DNA of 64,000 bases. It comes from Bacteroidales bacterium (GTDB lineage Bacteria; Bacteroidota; Bacteroidia; Bacteroidales; VadinHA17). How positions within the stretch are numbered: position 1 is the first letter of the stretch; each line of letters starts with the position of its first letter. Positions 41,976-59,871 of the stretch are shown piece after piece. The notes under the pieces were generated by a model. It was given only the letters and a program-made list of their open reading frames with translations. It was not told where the DNA came from and did not search any database. The stretch lies in NCBI GenBank assembly GCA_049294075.1, contig JBAQCK010000138.1, positions 38,361 through 102,360 on the forward strand, written 5' to 3'. Position numbers and translations under genes: made by a program.

Positions 41976-43589
41976 ATGCAGAAACAATTATTAATGGGTG
42001 ACGAGGCAATTGCGCTTGGAGCACTTGATGCCGGCCTGAGCGGCATGTACGCTTACCCCGGAACCCCCTCGACCGAAATAATGGAGTATATTCAGTCGTC
42101 GGAAGAGGCAGCCGGAAGAGGTGTACACAGGGAATGGTCGGCCAATGAGAAGACTGCCATGGAGGCAGCTTTGGGAATGTCGTATACGGGAAGAAGAGCC
42201 ATGGTAGCCATGAAGCATGTTGGTCTCAACGTGGCTGCCGACCCCTTTATCAATTCATCTGTGACCGGGATTAATGGCGGACTCGTGGTTGTATCAGCCG
42301 ACGATCCCTCGATGCATTCATCACAGAATGAACAGGATTCAAGATTCTACGGAAAATTTGCTTTTGTGCCGGTTTTTGAGCCTTCAAACCAACAGGAGGC
42401 CTACGATATGGTAAGCGATGCCTTTGACCTTTCTGAGAAATTCAGGATTCCCGTGCTGTTCAGGATAACTACGCGTCTTGCCCATTCACGTTCAGCGGTA
42501 AAGAGGAAAACTGCAATTCCTCAGAAGTCTTTTCAGCTTCCTTCCGATCCCCGCCAGTTTGTACTTCTTCCTGCCATAGCAAGGAAGAAGTACCATGCAC
42601 TGCTGGCCACTTACGAATCTCTGAAATATGATAACAGGCTTTCAAGATACAACGTGTTCAAGGATGGGAAGAACAGAAGAATGGGCGTAATAGCATGCGG
42701 CATAACATATAATTATCTTATGGAGAACTTTCCGGATAAGGGTCCGGGATTTCCCGTGCTGAAAATCACCACCTACCCGTTTCCGAAAGATATTATCAGT
42801 GATCTGACAAGCAGATGTGAGGAGGTTCTTGTTCTCGAGGAGGGGTACCCTATTATTGAGGAGGGTCTGAGAGGAATACTGGATAACAGCCTGTCGGTTT
42901 ACGGACGACTCGACGGTGCAATCCCGAGGGAAGGTGAACTGAATCCGTCGGTTGTGGCCAAAGCACTGGGGATCAAATCAGAGCCATTGTTCAAAGTCCC
43001 CGATGTTGTAAAAACCCGGCCGCCGTCATTTTGCAAGGGATGCGGGCATTCCGACACTTTCCTTGCTGTTATCGATGCCTTGAAACCGTCGGGCGGCAGG
43101 GGAGTATTCTCGGACATCGGATGTTATACACTGGCTGCACTGCCTCCATACAGCATCATAAACTCCTGTGTCGATATGGGAGCATCTGTTACCATGGCTG
43201 TAGGGGCCGCTGACGGGGGATTAAGACCCTCTGTTGCAGTGATAGGCGATTCAACCTTCACCCATTCGGGCATGACCGGGCTACTCGATGCAGTGATGAA
43301 AAACTCCCCGGTAACAGTAATCATATCGGATAACTCAGCCACGGCAATGACCGGCGGACAGAAATCCCATGCCACCGGACGGCTTGAAAAAATCTGCGAA
43401 GGACTTGGCGTTGACCCCAAACACATCAGGACGATAGTGCCGCTTAAGAAGAATCACGCGGAGAATGTGGAAGTCATGCAGGAAGAATTCGAATATCAGG
43501 GTGTCTCGGTGATAATTTCTGCAAGGGAATGCATCCAAACTGCCTCAAAGCGCAGGAAATCCAATAAAAGCAACGAGCAGGAATCATGA
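41976..43589 (+). CDS. iorA: indolepyruvate:ferredoxin oxidoreductase alpha subunit
   Basis: MQKQLLMGDEAIALGALDAG...YPGTPSTEI and a TPP-binding domain (FCKGCGH, GDSTFTHSG). Confidence 0.85.
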   Translation: MQKQLLMGDEAIALGALDAGLSGMYAYPGTPSTEIMEYIQSSEEAAGRGVHREWSANEKTAMEAALGMSYTGRRAMVAMKHVGLNVAADPFINSSVTGINGGLVVVSADDPSMHSSQNEQDSRFYGKFAFVPVFEPSNQQEAYDMVSDAFDLSEKFRIPVLFRITTRLAHSRSAVKRKTAIPQKSFQLPSDPRQFVLLPAIARKKYHALLATYESLKYDNRLSRYNVFKDGKNRRMGVIACGITYNYLMENFPDKGPGFPVLKITTYPFPKDIISDLTSRCEEVLVLEEGYPIIEEGLRGILDNSLSVYGRLDGAIPREGELNPSVVAKALGIKSEPLFKVPDVVKTRPPSFCKGCGHSDTFLAVIDALKPSGGRGVFSDIGCYTLAALPPYSIINSCVDMGASVTMAVGAADGGLRPSVAVIGDSTFTHSGMTGLLDAVMKNSPVTVIISDNSATAMTGGQKSHATGRLEKICEGLGVDPKHIRTIVPLKKNHAENVEVMQEEFEYQGVSVIISARECIQTASKRRKSNKSNEQES

Positions 43590-44152
43590 AGAGCGACATT
43601 ATACTATCAGGAGTAGGAGGGCAGGGGATATTGTCAATTGCGGCAATTATCGGCCTTGCCGCAATAGAAAATGATCTTTATCTCAAGCAGGCTGAAGTTC
43701 ATGGAATGAGCCAGAGGGGAGGAGATGTCCAGTCACACCTCAGGCTGTCATCAATGCCGGTTCATTCTGATCTGATTCCATATGGAAAAGCCGATCTGAT
43801 AATTTCAGTCGAACCAATGGAATCGCTCAGGTACCTGCCATGGCTTTCGGCATCCGGATGGCTGGTCACCAATTCAACACCATTCGTGAATATCGACGAC
43901 TATCCTCCTGTGGAAGATATCCTCAGCAGGATAAGGAAAGTGGGCAATCATAAAATTGTTGATGCTGACGAGATTGCACGACAGATAGGTTCGGCGCGTT
44001 CGGGTAATGTGGTGATCCTCGGCGCCGCCTCTAATTATCTTGATCTTCCCTGGGAAAGCCTCGAGAATGCTGTGATGAGATTATTTTCAAAGAAGAGTCC
44101 TGAACTGGCTGAGTTGAACGTGAAAGCCCTAAAGGCAGGACGAAACGCATGA
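43586..44152 (+). CDS. iorB: indolepyruvate:ferredoxin oxidoreductase beta subunit
   Basis: GVGGQGILS motif. 4-bp overlap with iorA. Confidence 0.85.
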   Translation: MKSDIILSGVGGQGILSIAAIIGLAAIENDLYLKQAEVHGMSQRGGDVQSHLRLSSMPVHSDLIPYGKADLIISVEPMESLRYLPWLSASGWLVTNSTPFVNIDDYPPVEDILSRIRKVGNHKIVDADEIARQIGSARSGNVVILGAASNYLDLPWESLENAVMRLFSKKSPELAELNVKALKAGRNA

Positions 44153-51964: not shown

Positions 51965-52095
51965 GTCAGGTTAGTGTGGCGTAAAATTAGCAAAACGAAG
52001 CTAAATCCTTTGAAAGGAGGGGTTGGTTTTTATCATTAAAGTAGTATTTTCGCTGTAATCAATCCATTATCAAACGCCGACAACCTGAATCTGAT

Positions 52096-52565
52096 ATGAA
52101 AAGCAATCGTCGGGATTTTTTGAAGCATGCAACAGTGGCTGGCGCGGGAGCCTTTGCAGGAGGACTCCTTTCGCCCCCTTTGCAAATCTTAGTTATCGCG
52201 GAAACATGAACACTTCGCTGGTCAGAACAAACCCTGGAAAGACTATTCTGATACAGCACGACGTGTCTTCGGTTCGTCCCTGTTCCCGGCTCCATGTGAT
52301 TAGGGGAACATCAGGCGCGGCAAGCAAGTATCCAGGGCCCGAACGGATTGCGATGGGGCATGACTGGTTCAATGAGGAATAGATGAAGGATGTCACTGAG
52401 AAGTTCACTCCTGAAATAGTGAGAAGAATTGGCGAGATGGCAAAAAAGGCCGGAGGCCACGGAGGAATCGATTTCATCATGGACTGTGGAGGCTGATCGA
52501 TTGCCTTAGGAAAGGTCTGCCGCTCGATCAGGATGTTTACGACGGCGCATTGTGGAGTTCCGTTA
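52096..52565 (+). pseudogene. relic of a TAT-signal Gfo/Idh/MocA glycosidase-like (GH109-type) gene
   Basis: An intact TAT signal (MKSNRRDFLKHATVAGAGAFAG) runs directly into C-terminal-domain fragments in three frames: GKTILIQHDV...; AKKAGGHGGIDFIMD; WRLIDCLRKGLPLDQDVYDGALWSSV. The Rossmann domain and the extreme C-terminus are missing. Confidence 0.7.
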
Positions 52566-52612: not shown

Positions 52613-54604
52613 ATGAATATCGCGCTTTTTTTTACCGTTCTGATTCTCTCTTTTGCGCTTTTCCTGGTCCCTAAAATCCTGAAGCACAGTACCGCACTGT
52701 TTGTACTTGCAGCAGGCATTCTGGTAACCACAGGCTGGAGCTTTGAAGTGTTTGCGGGAAGAACCGGTGAACTAAGGCTGGAAACCGTTGTTCCCCTTAT
52801 TGGAAAGTCAGTCACTCTCATAATTGACAGGCTGTCGGCGTTTTTCATACTTGTGGTTAATATTACCCTTCTTGTCGGATTGATATACGCAAAAGGATAT
52901 CTGAAGCCATATTACCAGATCAGGAACTCCCTGCGCTTTTCAATACATTACTTTTCGTACCTGTGGCTTTATTTCTCAATGATCCTGGTGTTGATCACGC
53001 GCGACGGATTGTCCTTTCTGATAGTGTGGGAAATAATGGCGCTTTCGTCATTCATGCTGGTCATTTTCGATGCAGAGGACACCTCGATCATGAAAACCGG
53101 TATCAGCTATCTTATCCAGATGCATGTTGGCATGTTCTTCCTGATGTTTGCCTTTCTCATTCTTGACCGTGAAACGGGGGAAATGAGTTTTGATGCCCTG
53201 GGCGGCTACTTCAGGGATCATTCGAACCTGCTCCTTTTCATTCTGTTCTTCATGGGATTTGGCATCAAAGCCGGATTCATTCCGCTGCACACATGGCTTC
53301 CACAGGCACATCCGGCTGCCCCTTCGCACGTTTCGGGAGTGATGTCGGGAGTGATGATAAAGATGGGAATATATGGTATTATGAGAGTACTGCTCTATGT
53401 CAGTCAGGATCTTCTGCAGATCGGAATCCTGATCCTGATCGTATCGCTCATATCGGGGCTGCTTGGAGTGATGATGGCGATAGTGCAGCATGACCTGAAA
53501 AGGTTGCTGGCTTACCACAGCATCGAAAACATAGGGATAATTGGCATCGGCATCGGGCTGGGAGTAATCGGACTCGCTACCGGGAACAATGCGCTGAGTA
53601 TCCTGGGATTCAGCGGCGGATTGCTGCATGTGCTTAACCATTCCCTGTTTAAATCGCTCCTTTTTTTCAGTGCGGGATCCGTATACACCTCCACTCACAC
53701 CAGGAATATTGAAAAGATGGGAGGGCTGATGAAGCGAATGCCCTATACATCCGTGCTTTTTCTTATAGGGTCGCTTGCTATCTGCGGTCTGCCTCCCTTT
53801 AACGGATTCATTTCCGAATACCTTATTTACCTGGGTATGTTCAGAGACCTGCCGTCGGCGGGGATGCACGAGTCAATACTTGTGCTTGGATCAATTGTAG
53901 GCCTGTCACTCATCGGAGGCCTTGCCGTTTTCTGTTTTACAAAGGCATTCGGGATAGCTTTTCTCGGGGAACCACGCTCACAGCATTCAACATCAGCCAT
54001 TGAAGTTGAGAAGGTGATGATTTTCCCGCAATTTGTTTCAGTTGCCATGATAATACTCATCGGAGTGGCTTCGCCATGGTTTGTCAGGCCCGTTTTTGAA
54101 ATCGTCTCATCGGGATTCGGAATTGAAGGGATGCCCGCAGTAGCAAATTCAACATTACCGGGACTTTCAAAGATTAGTATCATTTCAGGAGTCTTCATTA
54201 TGCTTGTGCTTGCTTTGTCACTGTACAGGCAATTCCATCTTAAGTCGGTCAAAGTGAGCCGGGGTCCGACATGGGGTTGCGGCTACACTGCCCCGGATCC
54301 TAAACAGCAATACACTTCAACGTCTTTTGCATACAACTACAACCATCTGGCAAAACCGGTTATCGGGACAAAAAAAATGATGCCGGAGATAATGGAGGAA
54401 GAGATTTTCCCGGTGGAAAGAAGCTTCAGTTCGTTTAGTGACGATGTTTTCCGGAAAGTGTTAATTGACAAGCCAGCCGGTATGGTCTCTTCGCTTCTCA
54501 AGAAGATAGCCGTGATGCAGACCGGGAAGGTTCAGCACTACGTACTATACGCGTTTATTTTCATGCTCTTTGTGCTTTTGCTCACCTGGCTCAATATTAT
54601 CTGA
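52613..54604 (+). CDS. HyfB/NuoL-like antiporter-type membrane subunit
   Basis: About 16 TM segments and Mrp/NuoL family motifs (GFIPLHTWLPQAHPAAPSHVSG). Start set at MNIALFF rather than the upstream TTG. Confidence 0.85.
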   Translation: MNIALFFTVLILSFALFLVPKILKHSTALFVLAAGILVTTGWSFEVFAGRTGELRLETVVPLIGKSVTLIIDRLSAFFILVVNITLLVGLIYAKGYLKPYYQIRNSLRFSIHYFSYLWLYFSMILVLITRDGLSFLIVWEIMALSSFMLVIFDAEDTSIMKTGISYLIQMHVGMFFLMFAFLILDRETGEMSFDALGGYFRDHSNLLLFILFFMGFGIKAGFIPLHTWLPQAHPAAPSHVSGVMSGVMIKMGIYGIMRVLLYVSQDLLQIGILILIVSLISGLLGVMMAIVQHDLKRLLAYHSIENIGIIGIGIGLGVIGLATGNNALSILGFSGGLLHVLNHSLFKSLLFFSAGSVYTSTHTRNIEKMGGLMKRMPYTSVLFLIGSLAICGLPPFNGFISEYLIYLGMFRDLPSAGMHESILVLGSIVGLSLIGGLAVFCFTKAFGIAFLGEPRSQHSTSAIEVEKVMIFPQFVSVAMIILIGVASPWFVRPVFEIVSSGFGIEGMPAVANSTLPGLSKISIISGVFIMLVLALSLYRQFHLKSVKVSRGPTWGCGYTAPDPKQQYTSTSFAYNYNHLAKPVIGTKKMMPEIMEEEIFPVERSFSSFSDDVFRKVLIDKPAGMVSSLLKKIAVMQTGKVQHYVLYAFIFMLFVLLLTWLNII

Positions 54605-54605
54605 T

Positions 54606-55526
54606 ATGGCAGGACTGATAATGATATTGATATCGGCCATGTTCTTCCCGGGAATGATACTCCGGACCAGGAGCATCGCATCAGGGCGCAAGGGACCCGG
54701 TATCCTTCAGCCTTTGAGAGATGCCGGAGTCCTGGTAAGGAAAGGGAGCGTATTCAGCACGACGACGGGTATTATTTTCCAGGTTGCACCTGTGGTTTCG
54801 CTTTCTTCAGTCATCTGCGCGATACTGGTGGTGCCTTTTGGACATCAGGAGGCGCTTATTCACTTCGAAGGGGACTTTGTATTTTTTGCGTATATCCTGG
54901 CCCTGGGACGTTTTTTCATGATAATTGCCGCTCTCGACACAGGTAGCAGCTTTGAAGGAATGGGAGCAAGCCGCGAAGCCTTTTTTTCAATGCTTATCGA
55001 ACCCGCATTCTTTATCCTTATGGCTACCTTCTCGATGTTTACAGGACTCGTTTCCTTTTCGGATATCTTCAGCCATTTCTTCATTACCGGTAATCATTAT
55101 GTACTTATATTCAGCATTATAGGTTTTTATTTATTCATACAGACCGCTTTGATCGAAAACAGCCGGCTTCCTGTCGATGATCCCAAAACCCATCTGGAGC
55201 TGACAATGATTCATGAAGTGATGATCCTCGATTACAGCGGCTTCGACAAGGCGCTTATCCATATTACTACATGGCTCAAATTTGCTGCATACGGATCGCT
55301 CATGTATAATGTTATAGTGCCGGCGGGATGGAATATATTCCTTCAGATTGCACTCTTCATTGCCGTTCAGGCTTTGTTTGCGATTATTGTAGGATTTCTC
55401 GAATCATTCAGGGCAAGAAACAAGATGAACAAGAATCCCAAGTTCATATTAACGATTTCGGCAATTGCCCTTCTTGCCTTTGTGGTTATACTGATATTGA
55501 ACCTGAATATGAATAGTAATTTTTAG
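54606..55526 (+). CDS. HyfC/HycD/NuoH-like membrane subunit
   Basis: RTRSIASGRKGPGILQPLRD N-terminal loop and 8 TM segments. Confidence 0.8.
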   Translation: MAGLIMILISAMFFPGMILRTRSIASGRKGPGILQPLRDAGVLVRKGSVFSTTTGIIFQVAPVVSLSSVICAILVVPFGHQEALIHFEGDFVFFAYILALGRFFMIIAALDTGSSFEGMGASREAFFSMLIEPAFFILMATFSMFTGLVSFSDIFSHFFITGNHYVLIFSIIGFYLFIQTALIENSRLPVDDPKTHLELTMIHEVMILDYSGFDKALIHITTWLKFAAYGSLMYNVIVPAGWNIFLQIALFIAVQALFAIIVGFLESFRARNKMNKNPKFILTISAIALLAFVVILILNLNMNSNF

Positions 55527-55532
55527 CAAGCG

Positions 55533-56147
55533 ATGGAGATTTACCTTATAGTGTTATTTGCGATAACACTCGTATATTTTGCTTCAGCCGAACGACTGGT
55601 GACCTACATACGGCTCATCGGCATTCAGGGTCTGCTTTTGTGCGGGATCGCCATATTTGAACTTACCGAGGTGAACACCGTAAACCTGATATTCATTATT
55701 GCAGAGACTATCATAATAAAGGCAACAGTGATACCTTACCTTCTTAAACGCATCACAACGGAATCAGGTGTAACCAAAGTTCACAGGCAGGCAATGCCCG
55801 GATTTTATCTTATCATACTGTCGGTTACAGCCCTGCTGGCAAGCCTTATCCTTTCTTATTCGATGAAGAACCCGTATGTGAACGTGATTTACATGACGAT
55901 TGCACTGTTCAGCCTTTTTACAGGGCTACTGATGATTGTAACCCACAGGCTGATCATTTCCCATCTTACCGGCTTTCTTATAATTGAGAATGCTGTTTTC
56001 GTTTTTTCGATTGCTGTTGGAAATGAAATGCCGATGCTTATAAATATCGGAATTCTCCTTGATATTTTTGTCGGGGTTCTTATTCTTGGCTTTTTCGGAT
56101 TGCGCCTTAAACCCCACACCAACGAACTAACCCTGCTAAAGGACTGA
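55533..56147 (+). CDS. HyfE-like small membrane subunit
   Basis: 204 aa, about 6 TM segments, positioned between the NuoH-like and NuoM/N-like genes as in hyf operons. Confidence 0.65.
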   Translation: MEIYLIVLFAITLVYFASAERLVTYIRLIGIQGLLLCGIAIFELTEVNTVNLIFIIAETIIIKATVIPYLLKRITTESGVTKVHRQAMPGFYLIILSVTALLASLILSYSMKNPYVNVIYMTIALFSLFTGLLMIVTHRLIISHLTGFLIIENAVFVFSIAVGNEMPMLINIGILLDIFVGVLILGFFGLRLKPHTNELTLLKD

Positions 56148-56148
56148 C

Positions 56149-57573
56149 ATGCTGCTGTTGTTTTTTATAATATCTGTGCTTATATGTCTGTCGATGCTGC
56201 TCTTCAGAAGCAAAAACCTTACAAAAATCCTGATGGTGGGCTTCGCAATGATGCATATAGTGCTGAGCATCTACTCATTTACCAGACTCGGCAATACCGA
56301 GCTCCGATTTTTCACCTATACAGGGATAGGAGTTCTTCTTCTTTCGGTGCTTTCAATTCTGGCGGTTCCCGTTGTTTACCATGGATTTATATATACGGCC
56401 GGCGATGATACAAGGAAATTCAACATCTATCATGCTTCTCTGGTTGCCCTTATGACCTTTATGACCGGAGCTTACCTGGCAAACGGAATGACAGTGCTTT
56501 GGGCATTTGTGGAAGCAACCACTCTGGCTGTGGCATTATTGATTTATCACGACCGGACTCCGGCAGCTCTTGAAGCAACCTGGAAATATGTGTTTATCTG
56601 CTCAGCCGGAATTGCCCTTGCATACCTGGGGATTCTGTTCCTGGGATTTATCTACGGACGCGAGGATGCGGCCAGCCTTTCATTCTCATCACTTTCCACA
56701 ATAATCAACCAGGCAAATCCGATGTATCTAAGGATTGCCTTCCTGTTTGTTCTGACAGGCTTCAGCACGAAGATGGGTCTTTTCCCCATGCACACCGTTA
56801 CTATCGATGCCCATTCCGTTGCCCCTCCTCCAATTTCCGCCTTGATCTCCACCACTCTTATGAATGTGGGCTTTCTGGCGATTTTCAGGGTTTATTCCCT
56901 GTTCTCGTCTTCATCGGTTTTTCCGTTTATGAACAATGTGCTGATCTTAGCCGGACTGCTTTCAATCCTCGTCGCTTCAGGCTACATGCTTAAGGCCAAG
57001 CATCTGAAACGTATGCTGGCATATTCAAGCCTTGAGAATATGGGGTTGGTTGCAATAGCGATCGGAGTGGGAGGCATAGGGTACTATGCCGGAATATTGC
57101 TGCTTTTATTGCATTCTCTGGCTAAATCGAGCCTGTTTTTCCAGATGGGTCAGCTGTCGAGGGTGCTTCATACCTTTAAGCTGGACAATTGCGGCAGATA
57201 TATGGAACTGTATCCCGCCGGGGCGATGGTATTGCTCCTGGGAATGATCTGTATACTTGCGCTTCCGCCGTCGGGACTTTTTATTACTGAATTCCTGATC
57301 TTCAAGGGAATGGTTAGCAATGGCCAATGGGTTGTGATGATTACGGCTGTGGCGCTTTTATGCTTTGTGGTTTATGCAATGAGCACACGCTTCATGCATA
57401 TTTTATTCTCAAATCCGCGCGGTGATGCCGGACTTACGGAACCGGGTAAAGTAAACGGGATTGAGACGGTCAGCCAGTTTGTCCTTCTGGGTGTGGTGGT
57501 GCTTATGTGCTTTTATCAGCCCTCCTTCCTGTCGGAAATGATCTTTCAAAGCATCAGCCTATTGCCAAAATGA
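56149..57573 (+). CDS. HyfF/NuoM-N-like antiporter-type membrane subunit
   Basis: About 13 TM segments, with FSTKMGLFPMHTV and AYSSLENMG motifs. Confidence 0.8.
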   Translation: MLLLFFIISVLICLSMLLFRSKNLTKILMVGFAMMHIVLSIYSFTRLGNTELRFFTYTGIGVLLLSVLSILAVPVVYHGFIYTAGDDTRKFNIYHASLVALMTFMTGAYLANGMTVLWAFVEATTLAVALLIYHDRTPAALEATWKYVFICSAGIALAYLGILFLGFIYGREDAASLSFSSLSTIINQANPMYLRIAFLFVLTGFSTKMGLFPMHTVTIDAHSVAPPPISALISTTLMNVGFLAIFRVYSLFSSSSVFPFMNNVLILAGLLSILVASGYMLKAKHLKRMLAYSSLENMGLVAIAIGVGGIGYYAGILLLLLHSLAKSSLFFQMGQLSRVLHTFKLDNCGRYMELYPAGAMVLLLGMICILALPPSGLFITEFLIFKGMVSNGQWVVMITAVALLCFVVYAMSTRFMHILFSNPRGDAGLTEPGKVNGIETVSQFVLLGVVVLMCFYQPSFLSEMIFQSISLLPK

Positions 57574-57580
57574 GTAAATA

Positions 57581-59098
57581 ATGAACGAACTTTTCATAGA
57601 GATATCATCCAATCCGTTTACTGTCAGCATTGATATGATCCCGGTGCTGGAATATGAACTTTTCTGTGATCAGGCTGCCCTGATGCTTAAGGATGAATCG
57701 CAGCATTGTGTTGCCTATTATGCCGTGGAGACTCAAGGAAGCCTGAAGCTTATCTGCTGCATTGCAGATGACAGGGATCACAGTTTCAGGTTATTTTCTT
57801 CCATGCTTTCTGGCTGCAAAAGCACGGTAAGGTCACTGTCGAAGGAAGTCCCGCAGCTTCATGTATATGAACGCGAGATTCACGAGAATTACGGTGTTGT
57901 TTTTGAGGGGCATCCCTGGCTCAAGCCTGTGAGGTATCCTCACAACCGGGCATCAATGGCATCGGTTATGGACAACTATCCTTTTTACAGGATAGAAGGA
58001 GAGGAGCTTCATGAGGTTGGTGTCGGACCTGTACATGCCGGCGTGATAGAACCCGGACATTTCAGGTTCATCTGCAACGGCGAAAAGGTTCTGCATCTTG
58101 AAATACAGCTTGGTTACCAGCACAGGGGAGTGGAGCGTCTGCTGGCAGAAACCGGAAGCGGGATCAGGCGTTGTGTCCTGTGCGATAACATCGTGGGCGA
58201 TACCTCTGTCGGTTACGCACTTACATACGCCCGGGTAATTGAATCTCTGGCAGGTATCCAGCCCTCCAGGGCAATTCAGATTGAGCGTAACATCGGCCTG
58301 GAACTGGAAAGGATTGCTGTCCATATCGGCGATACGGCGGCATTGTGCGGTGATGTGGCATACCAGCTTGGTCAGGTTGTATGTGAGGCTCTGCGGACCG
58401 AAATAATAAACACCACACAGCTCTGGTGCGGCAACAGGTTTGGAAAAGGACTTGTTCGTCCGGGAGGCACAAATTATAAAATGACTTCCGAAGTTACTGA
58501 CAGGATACTTATTGTGCTTAAGGATGTTGGAGAAAGGTTTGCCACTATTTCCGACAGGATATATTCCCTTCAGAGTGTTCTGGCCCGGTTCGAGGATATT
58601 GGCCAGGTAACCCGGCAGCAGGCGCTTTTAACTGGCGCAGTAGGGATGGCAGCAAGGGCATGCGGAATCAGACGTGATATAAGATGGTCGCATCCTGACC
58701 AGTATTACCAGGATTGTTCTTTTGAGCCGGTGGTTCTCGAAACCGGGGATGTTCTTGCACGCGGGCTGCTCAGGGTTAAGGAAGTAAGTGAATCCATAAA
58801 CATTATCTCCCGACTTATAGCTGACCGGCAGAATCAGCAGGACGAGCTCTCCCTTCCTGATTACAATTGCAGTCTCAGGGCTGACAGTTTCGCACTGTCA
58901 CTTACAGAAGGCTGGAGAGGTGAGATATGCCATTCCGCAATCACTGACGGGAGCGGAAATATTGTTCATTACAAGGTAAAGGACCCGTCGTTCCATAACT
59001 GGATGGCTCTTGCTCTGGCGGTAAGAAACGAGGAGATTTCCGATTTTCCGGTCTGTAACAAGAGCTTTAACCTTAGTTACTGCGGGAATGATCTTTAG
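57581..59098 (+). CDS. fused NuoC-NuoD / HycE-like 'large subunit' lacking the canonical Ni-Fe cysteine motifs
   Basis: NuoC-like YEREIHENYGVVFEGHPWLKP. NuoD/HycE-like GPVHAGVIEPGHFRF and LGYQHRGVERL. The expected RxCGxCxxxH position reads NIVGDTSVGY, and the C-terminus reads NLSYCGNDL-stop instead of DPCxxCxxR. Confidence 0.8.
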   Translation: MNELFIEISSNPFTVSIDMIPVLEYELFCDQAALMLKDESQHCVAYYAVETQGSLKLICCIADDRDHSFRLFSSMLSGCKSTVRSLSKEVPQLHVYEREIHENYGVVFEGHPWLKPVRYPHNRASMASVMDNYPFYRIEGEELHEVGVGPVHAGVIEPGHFRFICNGEKVLHLEIQLGYQHRGVERLLAETGSGIRRCVLCDNIVGDTSVGYALTYARVIESLAGIQPSRAIQIERNIGLELERIAVHIGDTAALCGDVAYQLGQVVCEALRTEIINTTQLWCGNRFGKGLVRPGGTNYKMTSEVTDRILIVLKDVGERFATISDRIYSLQSVLARFEDIGQVTRQQALLTGAVGMAARACGIRRDIRWSHPDQYYQDCSFEPVVLETGDVLARGLLRVKEVSESINIISRLIADRQNQQDELSLPDYNCSLRADSFALSLTEGWRGEICHSAITDGSGNIVHYKVKDPSFHNWMALALAVRNEEISDFPVCNKSFNLSYCGNDL

Positions 59099-59115: not shown

Positions 59116-59871
59116 ATGTACAGGGAAATTAAAATATTAAAGCAGCATGGGATCCAGTATGTAAGGGACCTCCGGAATCAGCCGGTCTCTGACCTTTTCC
59201 GGGGAAGGCCGGTGATTTCAAGGGATATTACGGCCGCTGAAATCGAAAAGGTCAGTTCCCTTTGTCCGGCCGGCGCTATCGATAAGGTAAGCGGGTCAAT
59301 CGATCTGGGAAAATGTGTTTTTTGCAGAGAATGTGAATTCTGTCTGAAAGAAAAGATCCGTTTTACAAATGATTACCGGATAGCAGCCAGCAGGAGGGAG
59401 GATCTTGTAATCCGGCCGGGAACGGAGGCTCTGCTCAGGCTTGACGGGGAAGTAATAAGAAAGGAGATAAGGAAGATTTACAAGCGTTCGCTTAAGCTGA
59501 GGCAGGTATCTGCCGGTGGGGATAATTCGTGTGAGATGGAGCTCAATGCAACGGGCAATGTGAACTTCGACCTGGGGCGGTATGGGATTGAGTTTACAGC
59601 ATCGCCGCGTCATGCTGACGGGATAGTGATTACCGGACCTGTTTCAGCAAACATGGCTGCAGCACTACGACTAACATATGAAGCAGTGCCCGATCCGAAG
59701 GTGATCATCCTGGTTGGAACCGATGCGATCAGCGGAGGCATGTATGCCGGCTCACCTGCTGTTGAAAGGAGTTTTATCGAAGAACATCACATTGATCTTT
59801 ATGTTCCGGGCAACCCGGCCCATCCTTTGACTTTCATTAACGGGATTCTCGATCTTCTTGGAAAAAAATGA
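59116..59871 (+). CDS. NuoB/HycG-like 'small subunit' with N-terminal ferredoxin remnant and degenerate cluster ligands
   Basis: N-terminus has LCPAGAI...CVFCRECEFC. The NuoB core is RHADGIVITGP. The cluster motifs read GGDNSCEME, GTDAISGG and VPGNPAHP, so only 1 of 4 Cys is kept. Confidence 0.75.
   Translation: MYREIKILKQHGIQYVRDLRNQPVSDLFRGRPVISRDITAAEIEKVSSLCPAGAIDKVSGSIDLGKCVFCRECEFCLKEKIRFTNDYRIAASRREDLVIRPGTEALLRLDGEVIRKEIRKIYKRSLKLRQVSAGGDNSCEMELNATGNVNFDLGRYGIEFTASPRHADGIVITGPVSANMAAALRLTYEAVPDPKVIILVGTDAISGGMYAGSPAVERSFIEEHHIDLYVPGNPAHPLTFINGILDLLGKK

Follow-up and report, generated by a model that had tools for sequence, protein, structure and literature searches.

Can a small subunit of the hydrogenase and complex I type that keeps the ligands of a single iron-sulfur cluster still pass electrons on and, if not, what might it be kept for? 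The question is raised by EhrS, the 251 aa product of an ORF with an ATG start (59116..59871, + strand, end coordinate including the stop codon) in the window, a 64,000 nt stretch of DNA from a Bacteroidales bacterium (contig JBAQCK010000138.1, positions 38,361-102,360, forward strand; assembly GCA_049294075.1). A first-pass annotation had read this protein as a half-ferredoxin fused to a NuoB core stripped of its cluster ligands. The strings on which that reading was built (SSLCPAGAI, CVFCRECEFC, GGDNSCEME, GTDAISGG and VPGNPAHP) are all present and their codons were checked, and the fusion of a HycF/HyfH/NuoI-type domain to a HycG/NuoB-type core is borne out by the agreement of HMMER searches, a family profile and Foldseek comparison of an AlphaFold2 model. 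Annotation pipelines label such proteins ‘NADH:ubiquinone oxidoreductase’ or ‘Ni,Fe-hydrogenase III small subunit’.

The ehrS gene is the last of a six-gene Ehr (energy-converting-hydrogenase-related) operon, an assignment that rests here on motif and synteny criteria. Upstream of it, all on the + strand, lie the genes for EhrA, a HyfB/HycC-type antiporter-like subunit (52613..54604; Pfam Proton_antipo_M; NCBIfam hydrogenase 4 subunit B, 549 bits; HycC 7z0s_C, E 2.5e-69); EhrB, a NuoH/HycD-type membrane anchor subunit (54606..55526; Pfam NADHdh, E 2.6e-30; syntenic in Bacteroidota loci); EhrC, a HyfE-like membrane subunit (55533..56147; NCBIfam hydrogenase 4 membrane subunit, E 5e-8; likewise syntenic); EhrD, a HyfF-type antiporter-like subunit (56149..57573; Pfam Proton_antipo_M; NCBIfam hydrogenase 4 subunit F, E 2.3e-70); and the large subunit EhrL, a NuoC-NuoD/HycE-type fusion (57581..59098; Pfam Complex1_30kDa and Complex1_49kDa). 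The ORF list starts EhrA and EhrB at TTG codons (52550 and 54570), and the ATG codons at 52613 and 54606 are the likelier starts. A profile scan built on a nine-sequence alignment located the operon in other Bacteroidota, where its six genes are syntenic across orders, and it is present in the cultured Chryseolinea serpens, Arcticibacter and Millionella, whose physiology spans aerobes and anaerobes. No donor, partner, maturation or oxidoreductase gene was found conserved beside the Bacteroidota operons; the HTH_17+PTS_EIIA_2 gene that precedes the operons of relatives with three clusters is absent both from the Bacteroidota and from the window, and a promoter and terminator scan gave no signal over shuffled background.

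The N-terminal domain of EhrS (aa 1 to about 105, 59116..59430, with an amphipathic helix at aa 2-11) is of the HycF/NuoI ferredoxin type, and is modelled with a pLDDT of 91-97 over aa 31-100. Taken as a single sequence, this part of the protein bears only a faint resemblance to ferredoxins (Pfam Fer4, 14.1 bits where the cut-off is 21.1, E 0.041; NCBIfam FHL iron-sulfur subunit PRK12387, E 1.1e-6). A profile of the family’s N-terminal domains, however, matches Escherichia coli HycF (7z0s_F) end to end over residues 1-109 with an E value of 1.6e-22, and NuoI and MbhN with E values of about 1e-15; the N-terminal helix of HycF has been described previously (PMC9474812). The domain is thus ferredoxin-derived, as the first-pass annotation held, but it is not the truncated half that was proposed: it is full length, with one degenerate site.

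That degenerate site is the distal one, where T39, I43 and V46 (59230..59253) take the place of three of the Cys of ferredoxin motif 1 in alignments with relatives that keep CxxxCxxC. Two complete CxxCxxCxxxCP motifs would supply eight Cys for two clusters; motif 1 of EhrS retains only its fourth Cys, in C50-P51 (59263..59268), and motif 2 contributes C67-x2-C70-x2-C73 (59314..59334), its own fourth Cys not being conserved. In the published assignment, the Cys of the motif 1 CP and the first three Cys of motif 2 together ligate the medial [4Fe-4S] cluster (PMC8165549), so that the earlier reading of these residues as one cluster’s ligands, with the twin site lost, is upheld. None of C50, P51, C67, C70 and C73 varies among 120 close homologues or across 80 species-level Bacteroidota genomes (81 sequences); in the latter, the medial Cys have an entropy of 0 bits and the former distal positions drift (1.3-2.9 bits). 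The last Cys of CVFCRECEFC, C76 (59341..59343), is not conserved (A/L/R/C/Q). An apparent loss of the medial Cys in two sequences (P0123 and P0138) proved to be an artefact of frameshifted N-termini, in which the string ‘GNVLFAENV’ is an out-of-frame reading of ‘GKCVFCRECx’. From this invariance and the published ligand topology we infer one predicted [4Fe-4S] cluster, held by the four remaining Cys.

The C-terminal core (aa 117-250, 59464..59865) is of the HycG/MbhJ/NuoB type (Pfam Oxidored_q6, E 1.2e-19). It aligns with the solved MbhJ (6cfw_J, E 2.2e-21) and HycG (7z0s_G, E 8e-19), so that both halves of the protein match the families to which the first-pass annotation had proposed aligning them, and the model of EhrS (pLDDT 92.1, pTM 0.89) superposes on both structures at 1.8 A rmsd in Foldseek. 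The curated NuoB cut-offs are missed (PRK06411, 88.7 bits against 116; TIGR01957, 85.1 against 142.7), and the tandem-Cys (CC) motif of N2 is absent. In gap-free alignments to MbhJ and HycG, the residues that fall on the four proximal [4Fe-4S] cysteines are D136 and C139 (in D136-N-S-C139, 59521..59532), D203 (59722..59724) and N233 (59812..59814): three of the four canonical cysteines are replaced by D, D and N, just as had been noted. The fourth, C139, is the single Cys of the core, and is kept in about 90 % of species, with A, T or G as the alternatives in Bacteroidota. D136 and N233 are without exception (N233 in 81/81; 0 bits each), and D203 is D in 80/81 sequences and E in one (0.1 bits). 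This cluster-ligand pattern is not a product of chance, because the medial Cys, D136 and N233 never vary and D203 does so in a single sequence; and because the Asp/Asp/Asn positions are fixed, not decayed, the proximal pocket appears to have been converted rather than simply lost. The medial site (C50, C67, C70, C73) is, as judged by alignment, the sole ancestral cluster site that keeps its ligands in Bacteroidota EhrS.

The ancestral condition is preserved in relatives outside the Bacteroidota. Across the eleven ligand positions (3+1+3+4), the pattern is TIV-C-CCC-DCDN in EhrS against CCC-C-CCC-CCCC in 120/120 and 82/84 three-cluster relatives, and the sampled Verrucomicrobiota, Planctomycetota, Spirochaetota and Hydrogenedentota relatives keep all eleven cluster Cys. 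The comparison indicates that the ancestral fused subunit carried three putative [4Fe-4S] sites, distal, medial and proximal. The fusion is older than the ligand losses, is family-wide, and has already been published for Ehr complexes. Fusion and substitution do not co-occur across orthologues, a link that the first-pass annotation had put forward for checking; most fused relatives retain the eleven cysteines. Among representatives at 50 % identity, all three sites are present in 11, the medial and proximal sites in eight and the medial site only in four, and none has a distal site without a proximal one. A second, unrelated Ehr lineage is likewise medial-only with the Asp/Asp state; it has V, I or D at position 139, and its large subunit is without the conserved cysteines of the query family. 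When a neighbour-joining tree was built after masking of the ligand columns, 0/200 bootstraps united the two Asp-type groups in one clan; the second lineage therefore reached the medial-only Asp/Asp state independently.

Ligands are missing from the large subunit too. Alignments of EhrL to MbhL and HycE place ‘DNIVGDTSVGY’ at the L1 motif ‘RxCGxCxxxH’, and ‘FNLSYCGNDL’ at the C-terminal ‘DPCxxCxxR’. The [NiFe] cysteines are missing in the same way from 64-65 Bacteroidota large subunits, and the three-cluster relatives share a large subunit without the NiFe site; the Tyr and His of the complex I quinone site are also missing from the EhrL alignment. On this point the earlier suggestion that a remaining cluster would have no downstream acceptor is half secured: the [NiFe] cysteines and the quinone Tyr and His are indeed gone, but the suggestion would hold only conditionally, since EhrL has gained H42, C43, C59, C60 and C256.

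Our data are consistent with a model, to which we assign about an even chance of being correct, in which through-electron transfer no longer takes place, the medial cluster has a structural or sensory role, the Asp/Asp/Asn triad fills the old pocket, and ion translocation is what the complex does. The internal electron wire would be cut, because the medial cluster alone keeps its ligands and this state is fixed across the Bacteroidota; with the entry and exit clusters gone, a cytoplasmic donor would no longer be wired to the large-subunit pocket. The medial cluster may have been retained for a structural role in the ferredoxin domain, and might possibly sense redox state or iron as well, while the two carboxylates would occupy the former cluster pocket and preserve its net charge of -2. 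The complex would then be a cation- or proton-translocating machine that is not driven by through-electron transfer, with the conserved peripheral arm serving as a structural or regulatory cap. The antiporter-like subunits retain every canonical Glu, Lys and His; in the HyfB-like EhrA, E140, H226, H233, K250, E305, K347 and E402 do not vary across 52 Bacteroidota species. A purely passive cap is, however, not an obvious explanation, as conservation is stronger in the peripheral arm than in the membrane arm, and Mrp antiporters need no such arm. A bolder form of the model, which we offer tentatively and think unlikely to hold, is that the pocket was converted at least twice independently into a carboxylate site (Asp-Asp-Asn/Ser, adjoining the conserved His of EhrL) for cation binding or as a fixed-charge or proton relay, through which the peripheral arm would gate or drive ion translocation without an electron chain, the medial [4Fe-4S] cluster acting as a redox or iron sensor.

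The same fixed residues can be read as a new metal or catalytic site, in which D136, D203 and N233, with or without C139, and with H248 of EhrL, would hold a mononuclear metal or a substrate and exchange electrons with the medial cluster, as part of a redox enzyme that ferredoxin feeds directly at that cluster. The invariant triad and the strongly conserved EhrL motifs (DxIxGD, ELERIxxH and CNKSFNLSYCGxDL) would suit an active metal or substrate site too. H248, which lies in the ELERIxxH helix, is present in 100 % of both the Bacteroidota and the three-cluster groups, and we take its complex I counterpart to be the His adjoining cluster N2. The constancy of the triad beside the drifting former distal positions, and the twofold independent origin of Asp/Glu at positions 1 and 3, point the same way. 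Some lineages have the medial and proximal clusters only, which shows that the medial one can be an entry point, and in MBS the chemistry takes place at the proximal site itself (PMC7684303). However, Asp/Asp/Asn is a set of hard ligands, atypical of an electron relay, and position 139 is permissive, accepting A, T and G here and, in the second lineage, V, I and D. Cys and His residues that are conserved in the EhrL of three-cluster relatives have been relaxed or lost in the Bacteroidota (H166, from 83 % to 3 %; C217, from 83 % to 0 %; C268, from 100 % to 23 %), the pocket cysteines are entirely absent in the second lineage, and the operon has no linked donor or acceptor genes. Taken together, we regard a new redox site as doubtful.

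A two-cluster wire might also persist if a cluster near the proximal position had been rebuilt from C139 of EhrS and the residues gained by EhrL. These residues (H42, 97 %; C43, 97 %; C59, 95 %; C60, 83 %; C256, 98 %) are specific to the Bacteroidota, standing at 83-98 % there against 0-2 % in three-cluster relatives, and could, judging by their conservation, be ligands of something new; C139, too, is kept in most species. Yet C139 gives way to A, T or G without a compensating change at C256, no covariation between the two positions was found, and H42, C43, C59 and C60 sit in the NuoC-like domain, which in complex I family structures presumably lies away from the NuoB-NuoD interface where N2 is housed. 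The second lineage, moreover, has the same small-subunit state and a large subunit without the conserved cysteines of the query family. A rebuilt cluster is accordingly quite improbable.

With two of its three cluster sites and the [NiFe] site lost, EhrS might be taken for a pseudogene-like relic of a former hydrogenase small subunit, decaying and without present function, but we give this reading very little credence: a dN/dS of 0.08-0.10 rules out a pseudogene, the ORF is intact within an operon that is syntenic across Bacteroidota orders, about 70 EhrS positions are at least 97 % conserved, and no other subunit of the operon is as conserved as EhrS. That EhrS is an ordinary HycG/NuoB small subunit whose missing cysteines are an artefact of alignment, a view favoured by overall homology alone, has practically no chance of being right, as relatives at about 50 % identity carry Cys at exactly the substituted columns, and misalignment is ruled out by the gap-free MbhJ and HycG alignments, the 1.8 A superposition and the presence of a single Cys in the core.

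Our preferred reading, an ion translocator with a severed electron wire, bears on a widespread group of relatives of complex I and the membrane-bound hydrogenases, in which the documented loss is that of the large-subunit [NiFe] site. To this we add a Bacteroidota branch in which the Fe-S wire appears to be cut on both sides of the medial cluster, while the small subunit remains under the strongest constraint in its operon, and a second lineage in which the same end state evolved independently. Such complexes represent a natural experiment on whether a membrane arm of the complex I type needs redox input, and on what a peripheral arm may contribute to coupling beyond the delivery of electrons. 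As the branch includes cultured organisms (C. serpens, Arcticibacter and Millionella massiliensis), it may be suited to genetics. By the ligand tests EhrS is neither a hydrogenase subunit nor a complex I subunit, and metabolic reconstructions should therefore count it as neither.

Among known systems, the closest likeness is to the published Ehr complexes, which have an identical set of subunits and combine HyfB-, NuoH-, HyfE- and HyfF-like subunits with NuoC-NuoD and NuoI-NuoB fusions (PMC6349859, Supplementary Note 4), and whose large subunit lacks both CxxC [NiFe] motifs. They have been reported as EhrA-D,L,S in Geobacter sulfurreducens, and in Margulisbacteria, Saganbacteria, Nitrospira, Sulfobacillus and CPR (PMC6349859, PMC7894505, PMC10284858, PMC4378227). 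EhrS differs in being also without the distal and proximal Fe-S ligands, and in its invariant Asp/Asp/Asn. In the accessible literature on Ehr complexes we found loss of the large-subunit [NiFe] site only, and not of small-subunit Fe-S ligands, which Marreiros 2013 or Coppi 2005 may tabulate; our literature search found no published study of the Bacteroidota version of the operon.

In E. coli formate hydrogenlyase (7z0s), the counterpart of the EhrS N-terminal domain is HycF 1-109, the match taking in the amphipathic helix and the positions of both ferredoxin motifs, and that of the core is HycG residues 29-161, at 34 % identity. HycF and HycG, like HyfH and HyfI of E. coli Hyf, are two proteins and not the one of EhrS. 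HycF carries two clusters and a C-terminal Cys-quartet metal site, a quartet that EhrS lacks; HycG has G1, the proximal cluster, with ligands that are missing from EhrS, and HycE has the [NiFe] site that EhrL does not. More generally, EhrS shares the Oxidored_q6 fold of the group 4 [NiFe]-hydrogenase small subunits (HycG/MbhJ/EchC), but neither their four proximal Cys nor their [NiFe] partner. The Pyrococcus furiosus MBH (MbhN and MbhJ) and MBS (MbsN and MbsJ) complexes share the ancestral three-cluster peripheral arm and the same distal and medial ligand logic, which is similar in complex I (PMC8165549). In MBS the proximal site has been remodelled to three Cys and the [NiFe] site lost (PMC7684303). 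There the proximal cluster is kept and used catalytically, whereas EhrS has non-Cys residues at three of the four ligand positions and has lost the distal cluster too.

The folds of complex I NuoI (N6a and N6b) and NuoB (N2) are homologous to those of EhrS, and the NuoC-NuoD-like partner has likewise lost [NiFe]; from the shared ligand logic, we take the medial cluster to be the counterpart of N6b and the proximal cluster that of N2. EhrS differs in lacking the CC tandem motif and N2, and the quinone-site Tyr and His are unaligned in EhrL. For an Fe-S cluster retained in a structural role, the closest precedent is the off-pathway cluster N7 of complex I. The complex described here is not a member of the Mrp Na+/H+ antiporter family, which has no NuoH-, NuoD- or NuoB-like subunits, whereas the Ehr operon has NuoH-, NuoCD- and NuoIB-like genes, and Pfam and NCBIfam searches found no MrpB, C, E, F or G in it. 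Nevertheless, the two share MrpA/D-type subunits with conserved Glu, Lys and His, and Mrp, as a redox-independent relative within the same superfamily, represents a possible working model for the complex.

The EhrS small-subunit gene (59116..59871, + strand), a genuine 251-aa reading frame, is the final member of a six-gene operon. The other genes, all on the + strand, encode a HyfB/HycC-like antiporter-like subunit (52613..54604), NuoH/HycD-like (54606..55526), HyfE-like (55533..56147) and HyfF-like (56149..57573) subunits, and a NuoC-NuoD/HycE-like large subunit (57581..59098). For the first two ORFs the listed starts, TTG 52550 and TTG 54570, probably lie too far upstream: alignments with homologues start at ATG 52613 and ATG 54606, and ATG 54606 is 2 nt past the preceding stop. 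The large subunit lacks the [NiFe] cysteines, reading 'DNIVGDTSVGY' at the L1 motif 'RxCGxCxxxH' and 'FNLSYCGNDL' at 'DPCxxCxxR', and NuoD's quinone-site Tyr and His also have no aligned counterpart. Such a large subunit is the published definition of the energy-converting-hydrogenase-related (Ehr) complex (PMC6349859, PMC10284858, PMC7894505, PMC4378227), and the fusion is likewise in print, where earlier work on Firmicutes and hyperthermophiles is cited (PMC6349859 Supplementary Note 4), so the NuoI-NuoB fusion is not in itself new. Residue 212 (window 58214-58216) is Tyr here; this is the place of the L1-motif His, found in all three-cluster relatives (100%) and in 97% of Bacteroidota.

Upstream, the frames in window 52087-52550 are broken after a short ORF that carries a twin-arginine signal (MKSNRRDFLKHATVAGAGAFAGG...), and the region looks like the remnant of a putative oxidoreductase-like gene with a Tat-type signal; one relative (locus L002, 1704-3356) has this gene intact, as a 551-aa frame, upstream of its operon. 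Two genes 8.5 kb upstream of the operon (window 41976-44152; POR_N + TPP_enzyme_C, then POR gamma) encode a 2-oxoacid (indolepyruvate-type):ferredoxin oxidoreductase, so the organism runs ferredoxin-linked metabolism; the pair is no conserved neighbour of the Ehr operon.

Every string quoted in the first-pass annotation is found in the small-subunit frame, with codons verified: SSLCPAGAI (C50-P51), CVFCRECEFC (C67, C70, C73, C76), GGDNSCEME (D136, C139), GTDAISGG (D203) and VPGNPAHP (N233). EhrS has six Cys in total, C139 alone lying in the C-terminal half. Pfam Oxidored_q6 covers residues 137-246 (E 1.2e-19), and the NCBIfam NuoB score falls short of the curated cut-offs (88.7 vs 116 bits). 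Gap-free alignment of residues 117-249 with solved MbhJ (6cfw_J, E 2.2e-21) and HycG (7z0s_G, E 8e-19) establishes the identity of the core directly and maps D136, C139, D203 and N233 to the proximal [4Fe-4S] Cys columns, bearing out the proposed NuoB core with D, D and N at three of the four positions. A confident AlphaFold2 model built on 90 homologues (pLDDT 92.1, pTM 0.89) superposes its core on HycG and MbhJ at 1.8 A rmsd.

By itself, the N-terminal part is weakly ferredoxin-like (Pfam Fer4 E 0.041, under cut-off); residues 19-100 match the NCBIfam 'FHL iron-sulfur subunit' (E 1.1e-6). A profile of 22 N-domains of the EhrS family spans residues 1-109 of E. coli HycF (E 1.6e-22) and matches NuoI and MbhN (E about 1e-15). 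By this span, the domain is a HycF/NuoI-type ferredoxin domain of full length, with the N-terminal amphipathic helix described for the whole superfamily (PMC9474812). Alignment with relatives places T39, I43 and V46 at three Cys positions of motif 1. The earlier description as a HyfH/NuoI-derived domain fused to a NuoB core therefore stands, whereas the label 'half-ferredoxin' has to be dropped. HycF differs in its C-terminal Cys-quartet extension, which the EhrS N-domain lacks.

In MbsN, the distal cluster is ligated by C61, C64, C67 and C106 (motif 1 Cys1-3 and motif 2 Cys4) and the medial cluster by C71, C96, C99 and C102 (the motif 1 CP and motif 2 Cys1-3) (Yu et al., PMC8165549). On these assignments C50-P51 with C67/C70/C73 of EhrS forms the medial site, and the earlier count of one cluster from the CP of motif 1 plus the CxxCxxC of motif 2 was correct. 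The sites lost are those of entry (distal) and exit (proximal, N2-type). We take the remaining site to be equivalent to N6b of complex I.

Cluster loss does not accompany the fusion across orthologues, a co-occurrence that the first-pass annotation had raised. Among 50%-identity cluster representatives (4,305 hits), many fused homologues have four proximal Cys and many also an intact first motif; a profile of fused Cys-keeping homologues recovered 120 proteins, all 11 aligned cluster Cys being present in 120/120. Those named belong to Verrucomicrobiia, Phycisphaerae/Planctomycetes, Spirochaetales and Hydrogenedentota, and one group member scores above the Pfam dicluster cut-offs. Gene order in the operons of these proteins is unchanged (HyfB-, NuoH-, HyfE- and HyfF-like genes, B-C-E-F, then large and small subunit, L-S), and their large subunits are likewise without [NiFe] Cys and have the C-terminal 'CNKSFNLSYCGxDL' in common, so [NiFe] loss and fusion are older than Fe-S loss. 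The order of loss can be read directly from the full-length representatives at 50% identity: 11 keep three clusters, eight medial and proximal, four medial only, and none distal without proximal.

Directly upstream of the three-cluster operons, 16 of 23 loci with sufficient upstream sequence carry an HTH_17 + PTS_EIIA_2 gene (L081:1744-2433, L082:1832-2506, L083:1819-2514, L084:1-464), which is missing from the Bacteroidota loci and from the window. At L082, two Na_H_Exchanger+CBS genes and a further EIIA_2 gene come after the operon; such neighbours hint at ion-homeostasis regulation. In a Hydrogenedentota MAG (L083, 9782-14727), a second B-C-E-F set, four membrane-subunit genes without large or small subunit, immediately follows the complete operon and is a possible membrane-arm-only paralogue.

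In a neighbour-joining tree with ligand columns masked (200 bootstraps), the Bacteroidota group and proteins P0121 and P0122 form one clan (77% bootstrap), neighboured by three-cluster P0125/P0126 and two-cluster Cloacimonadota and Wallbacteria proteins. Two-cluster proteins in another part of the tree surround a second Asp/Glu-type group (P0191, P0204, P0206, P0239), and both Asp-type groups form a single clan in 0/200 bootstraps. A locus of this second group (L165, 3958-12161; 68% GC) departs from the usual gene order, with DUF190-C-E-F-L-S-B-Usp; its large subunit is without the Cys conserved in the query family and ends in 'INEASWGLSVASHDR', and its small subunit has D, V, D and S at the proximal positions with the medial Cys intact. 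The separate placement and this locus indicate at least two origins of the medial-only, Asp/Asp end state.

The best 120 database homologues of EhrS (69-88% identity) are Asp-type, those named being Bacteroidales. Scanning one genome per species gave at least 587 relatives, of which the best 80 (56-92% identity) are Bacteroidota without exception: Bacteroidales, Rikenellaceae, Prolixibacteraceae, Lentimicrobiaceae, Chitinophagaceae, Saprospiraceae and Flavobacteriales, with Arcticibacter (2 species), Chryseolinea serpens DSM 24574 and Millionella massiliensis as cultured species. The Ehr gene order is kept in Bacteroidota loci, now and then with one additional antiporter-like gene, and a comparison of their neighbours found no conserved gene beside the operon. 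Two loci are exceptions: L031 (10001-10747) has EhrS with no further Ehr gene in 10 kb upstream, and L017 (8377-10759) has large and small subunit alone, the four membrane-subunit genes not being upstream. Over 81 EhrS sequences, the medial ligands C50, C67, C70 and C73 are invariant, as are D136 and N233 of the former proximal site; position 203 is D in 80/81 (Glu in one) and position 139 is C in 73/81, with A/T/G tolerated. The former distal positions 39, 43, 46 and 76 are drifting (1.3-2.9 bits). The distal site has decayed, and what took the place of the proximal site is itself selected.

The large subunits of 64 Bacteroidota and 53 three-cluster relatives have C165, C283, C450, C492 and C501 in common. 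The Bacteroidota have lost H166 (3 vs 83%), C217 (0 vs 83%) and C268 (23 vs 100%), which fits redox-site decay, and have gained H42 and C43 (window 57704-57709) and C59 and C60 (window 57755-57760), these four at 83-97% vs 0-2%, and C256 (window 58346-58348; 98 vs 0%). The first four form an 'HC-x15-CC' motif within the NuoC-like domain and, with C256, are possibly a new metal site. In the membrane arm, E140, H226, H233, K250, E305, K347 and E402 of the HyfB-like subunit are invariant (52 species) and sit in motifs common to HycC and MbhH, and the NuoH-like subunit retains its 'ENSRLPVDDP..E.E' loop; with these features kept, selection appears to maintain ion translocation.

Loss of the distal and proximal sites would leave the medial cluster isolated. 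From inter-cluster spacings in FHL and MBS (PMC9474812, PMC8165549), we estimate that the large-subunit pocket lies about two tunnelling steps away, probably too far for turnover. The reading we favour, and give an even chance, is that the ferredoxin domain keeps the medial cluster as a cofactor with a structural and possibly also a sensory role, that two carboxylates (-2) substitute, speculatively, for the net -2 of an oxidised [4Fe-4S](Cys)4 site and so preserve the interface, and that the complex would act as a cation/proton translocator without drive by through-electron transfer. A new metal or catalytic site formed by D/D/N would suit the invariance of D136 and N233, less so the tolerance at C139, and is unlikely. 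Rebuilding of a cluster with large-subunit ligands is more doubtful still; C139 of the small subunit and C256 of the large do not covary. The gain of H42/C43/C59/C60/C256 is the main caveat to our view that no cluster is rebuilt. Loss of two of three cluster sites and of the [NiFe] site might suggest a decaying relic, which is highly improbable: no other subunit of the operon is as conserved as EhrS, and its dN/dS is 0.08-0.10 (vs three relatives). That the missing Cys are an alignment artefact is, next to gap-free alignments, scarcely credible.

A phylum-wide medial-only variant, invariant Asp/Asp/Asn and convergent origin are undescribed in the literature accessible to us, a scope that does not include the Marreiros 2013 Ehr survey. 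The Ehr class and its NuoI-NuoB fusion are already known; what would be new is the phylum-wide, medial-only EhrS variant of that known class.
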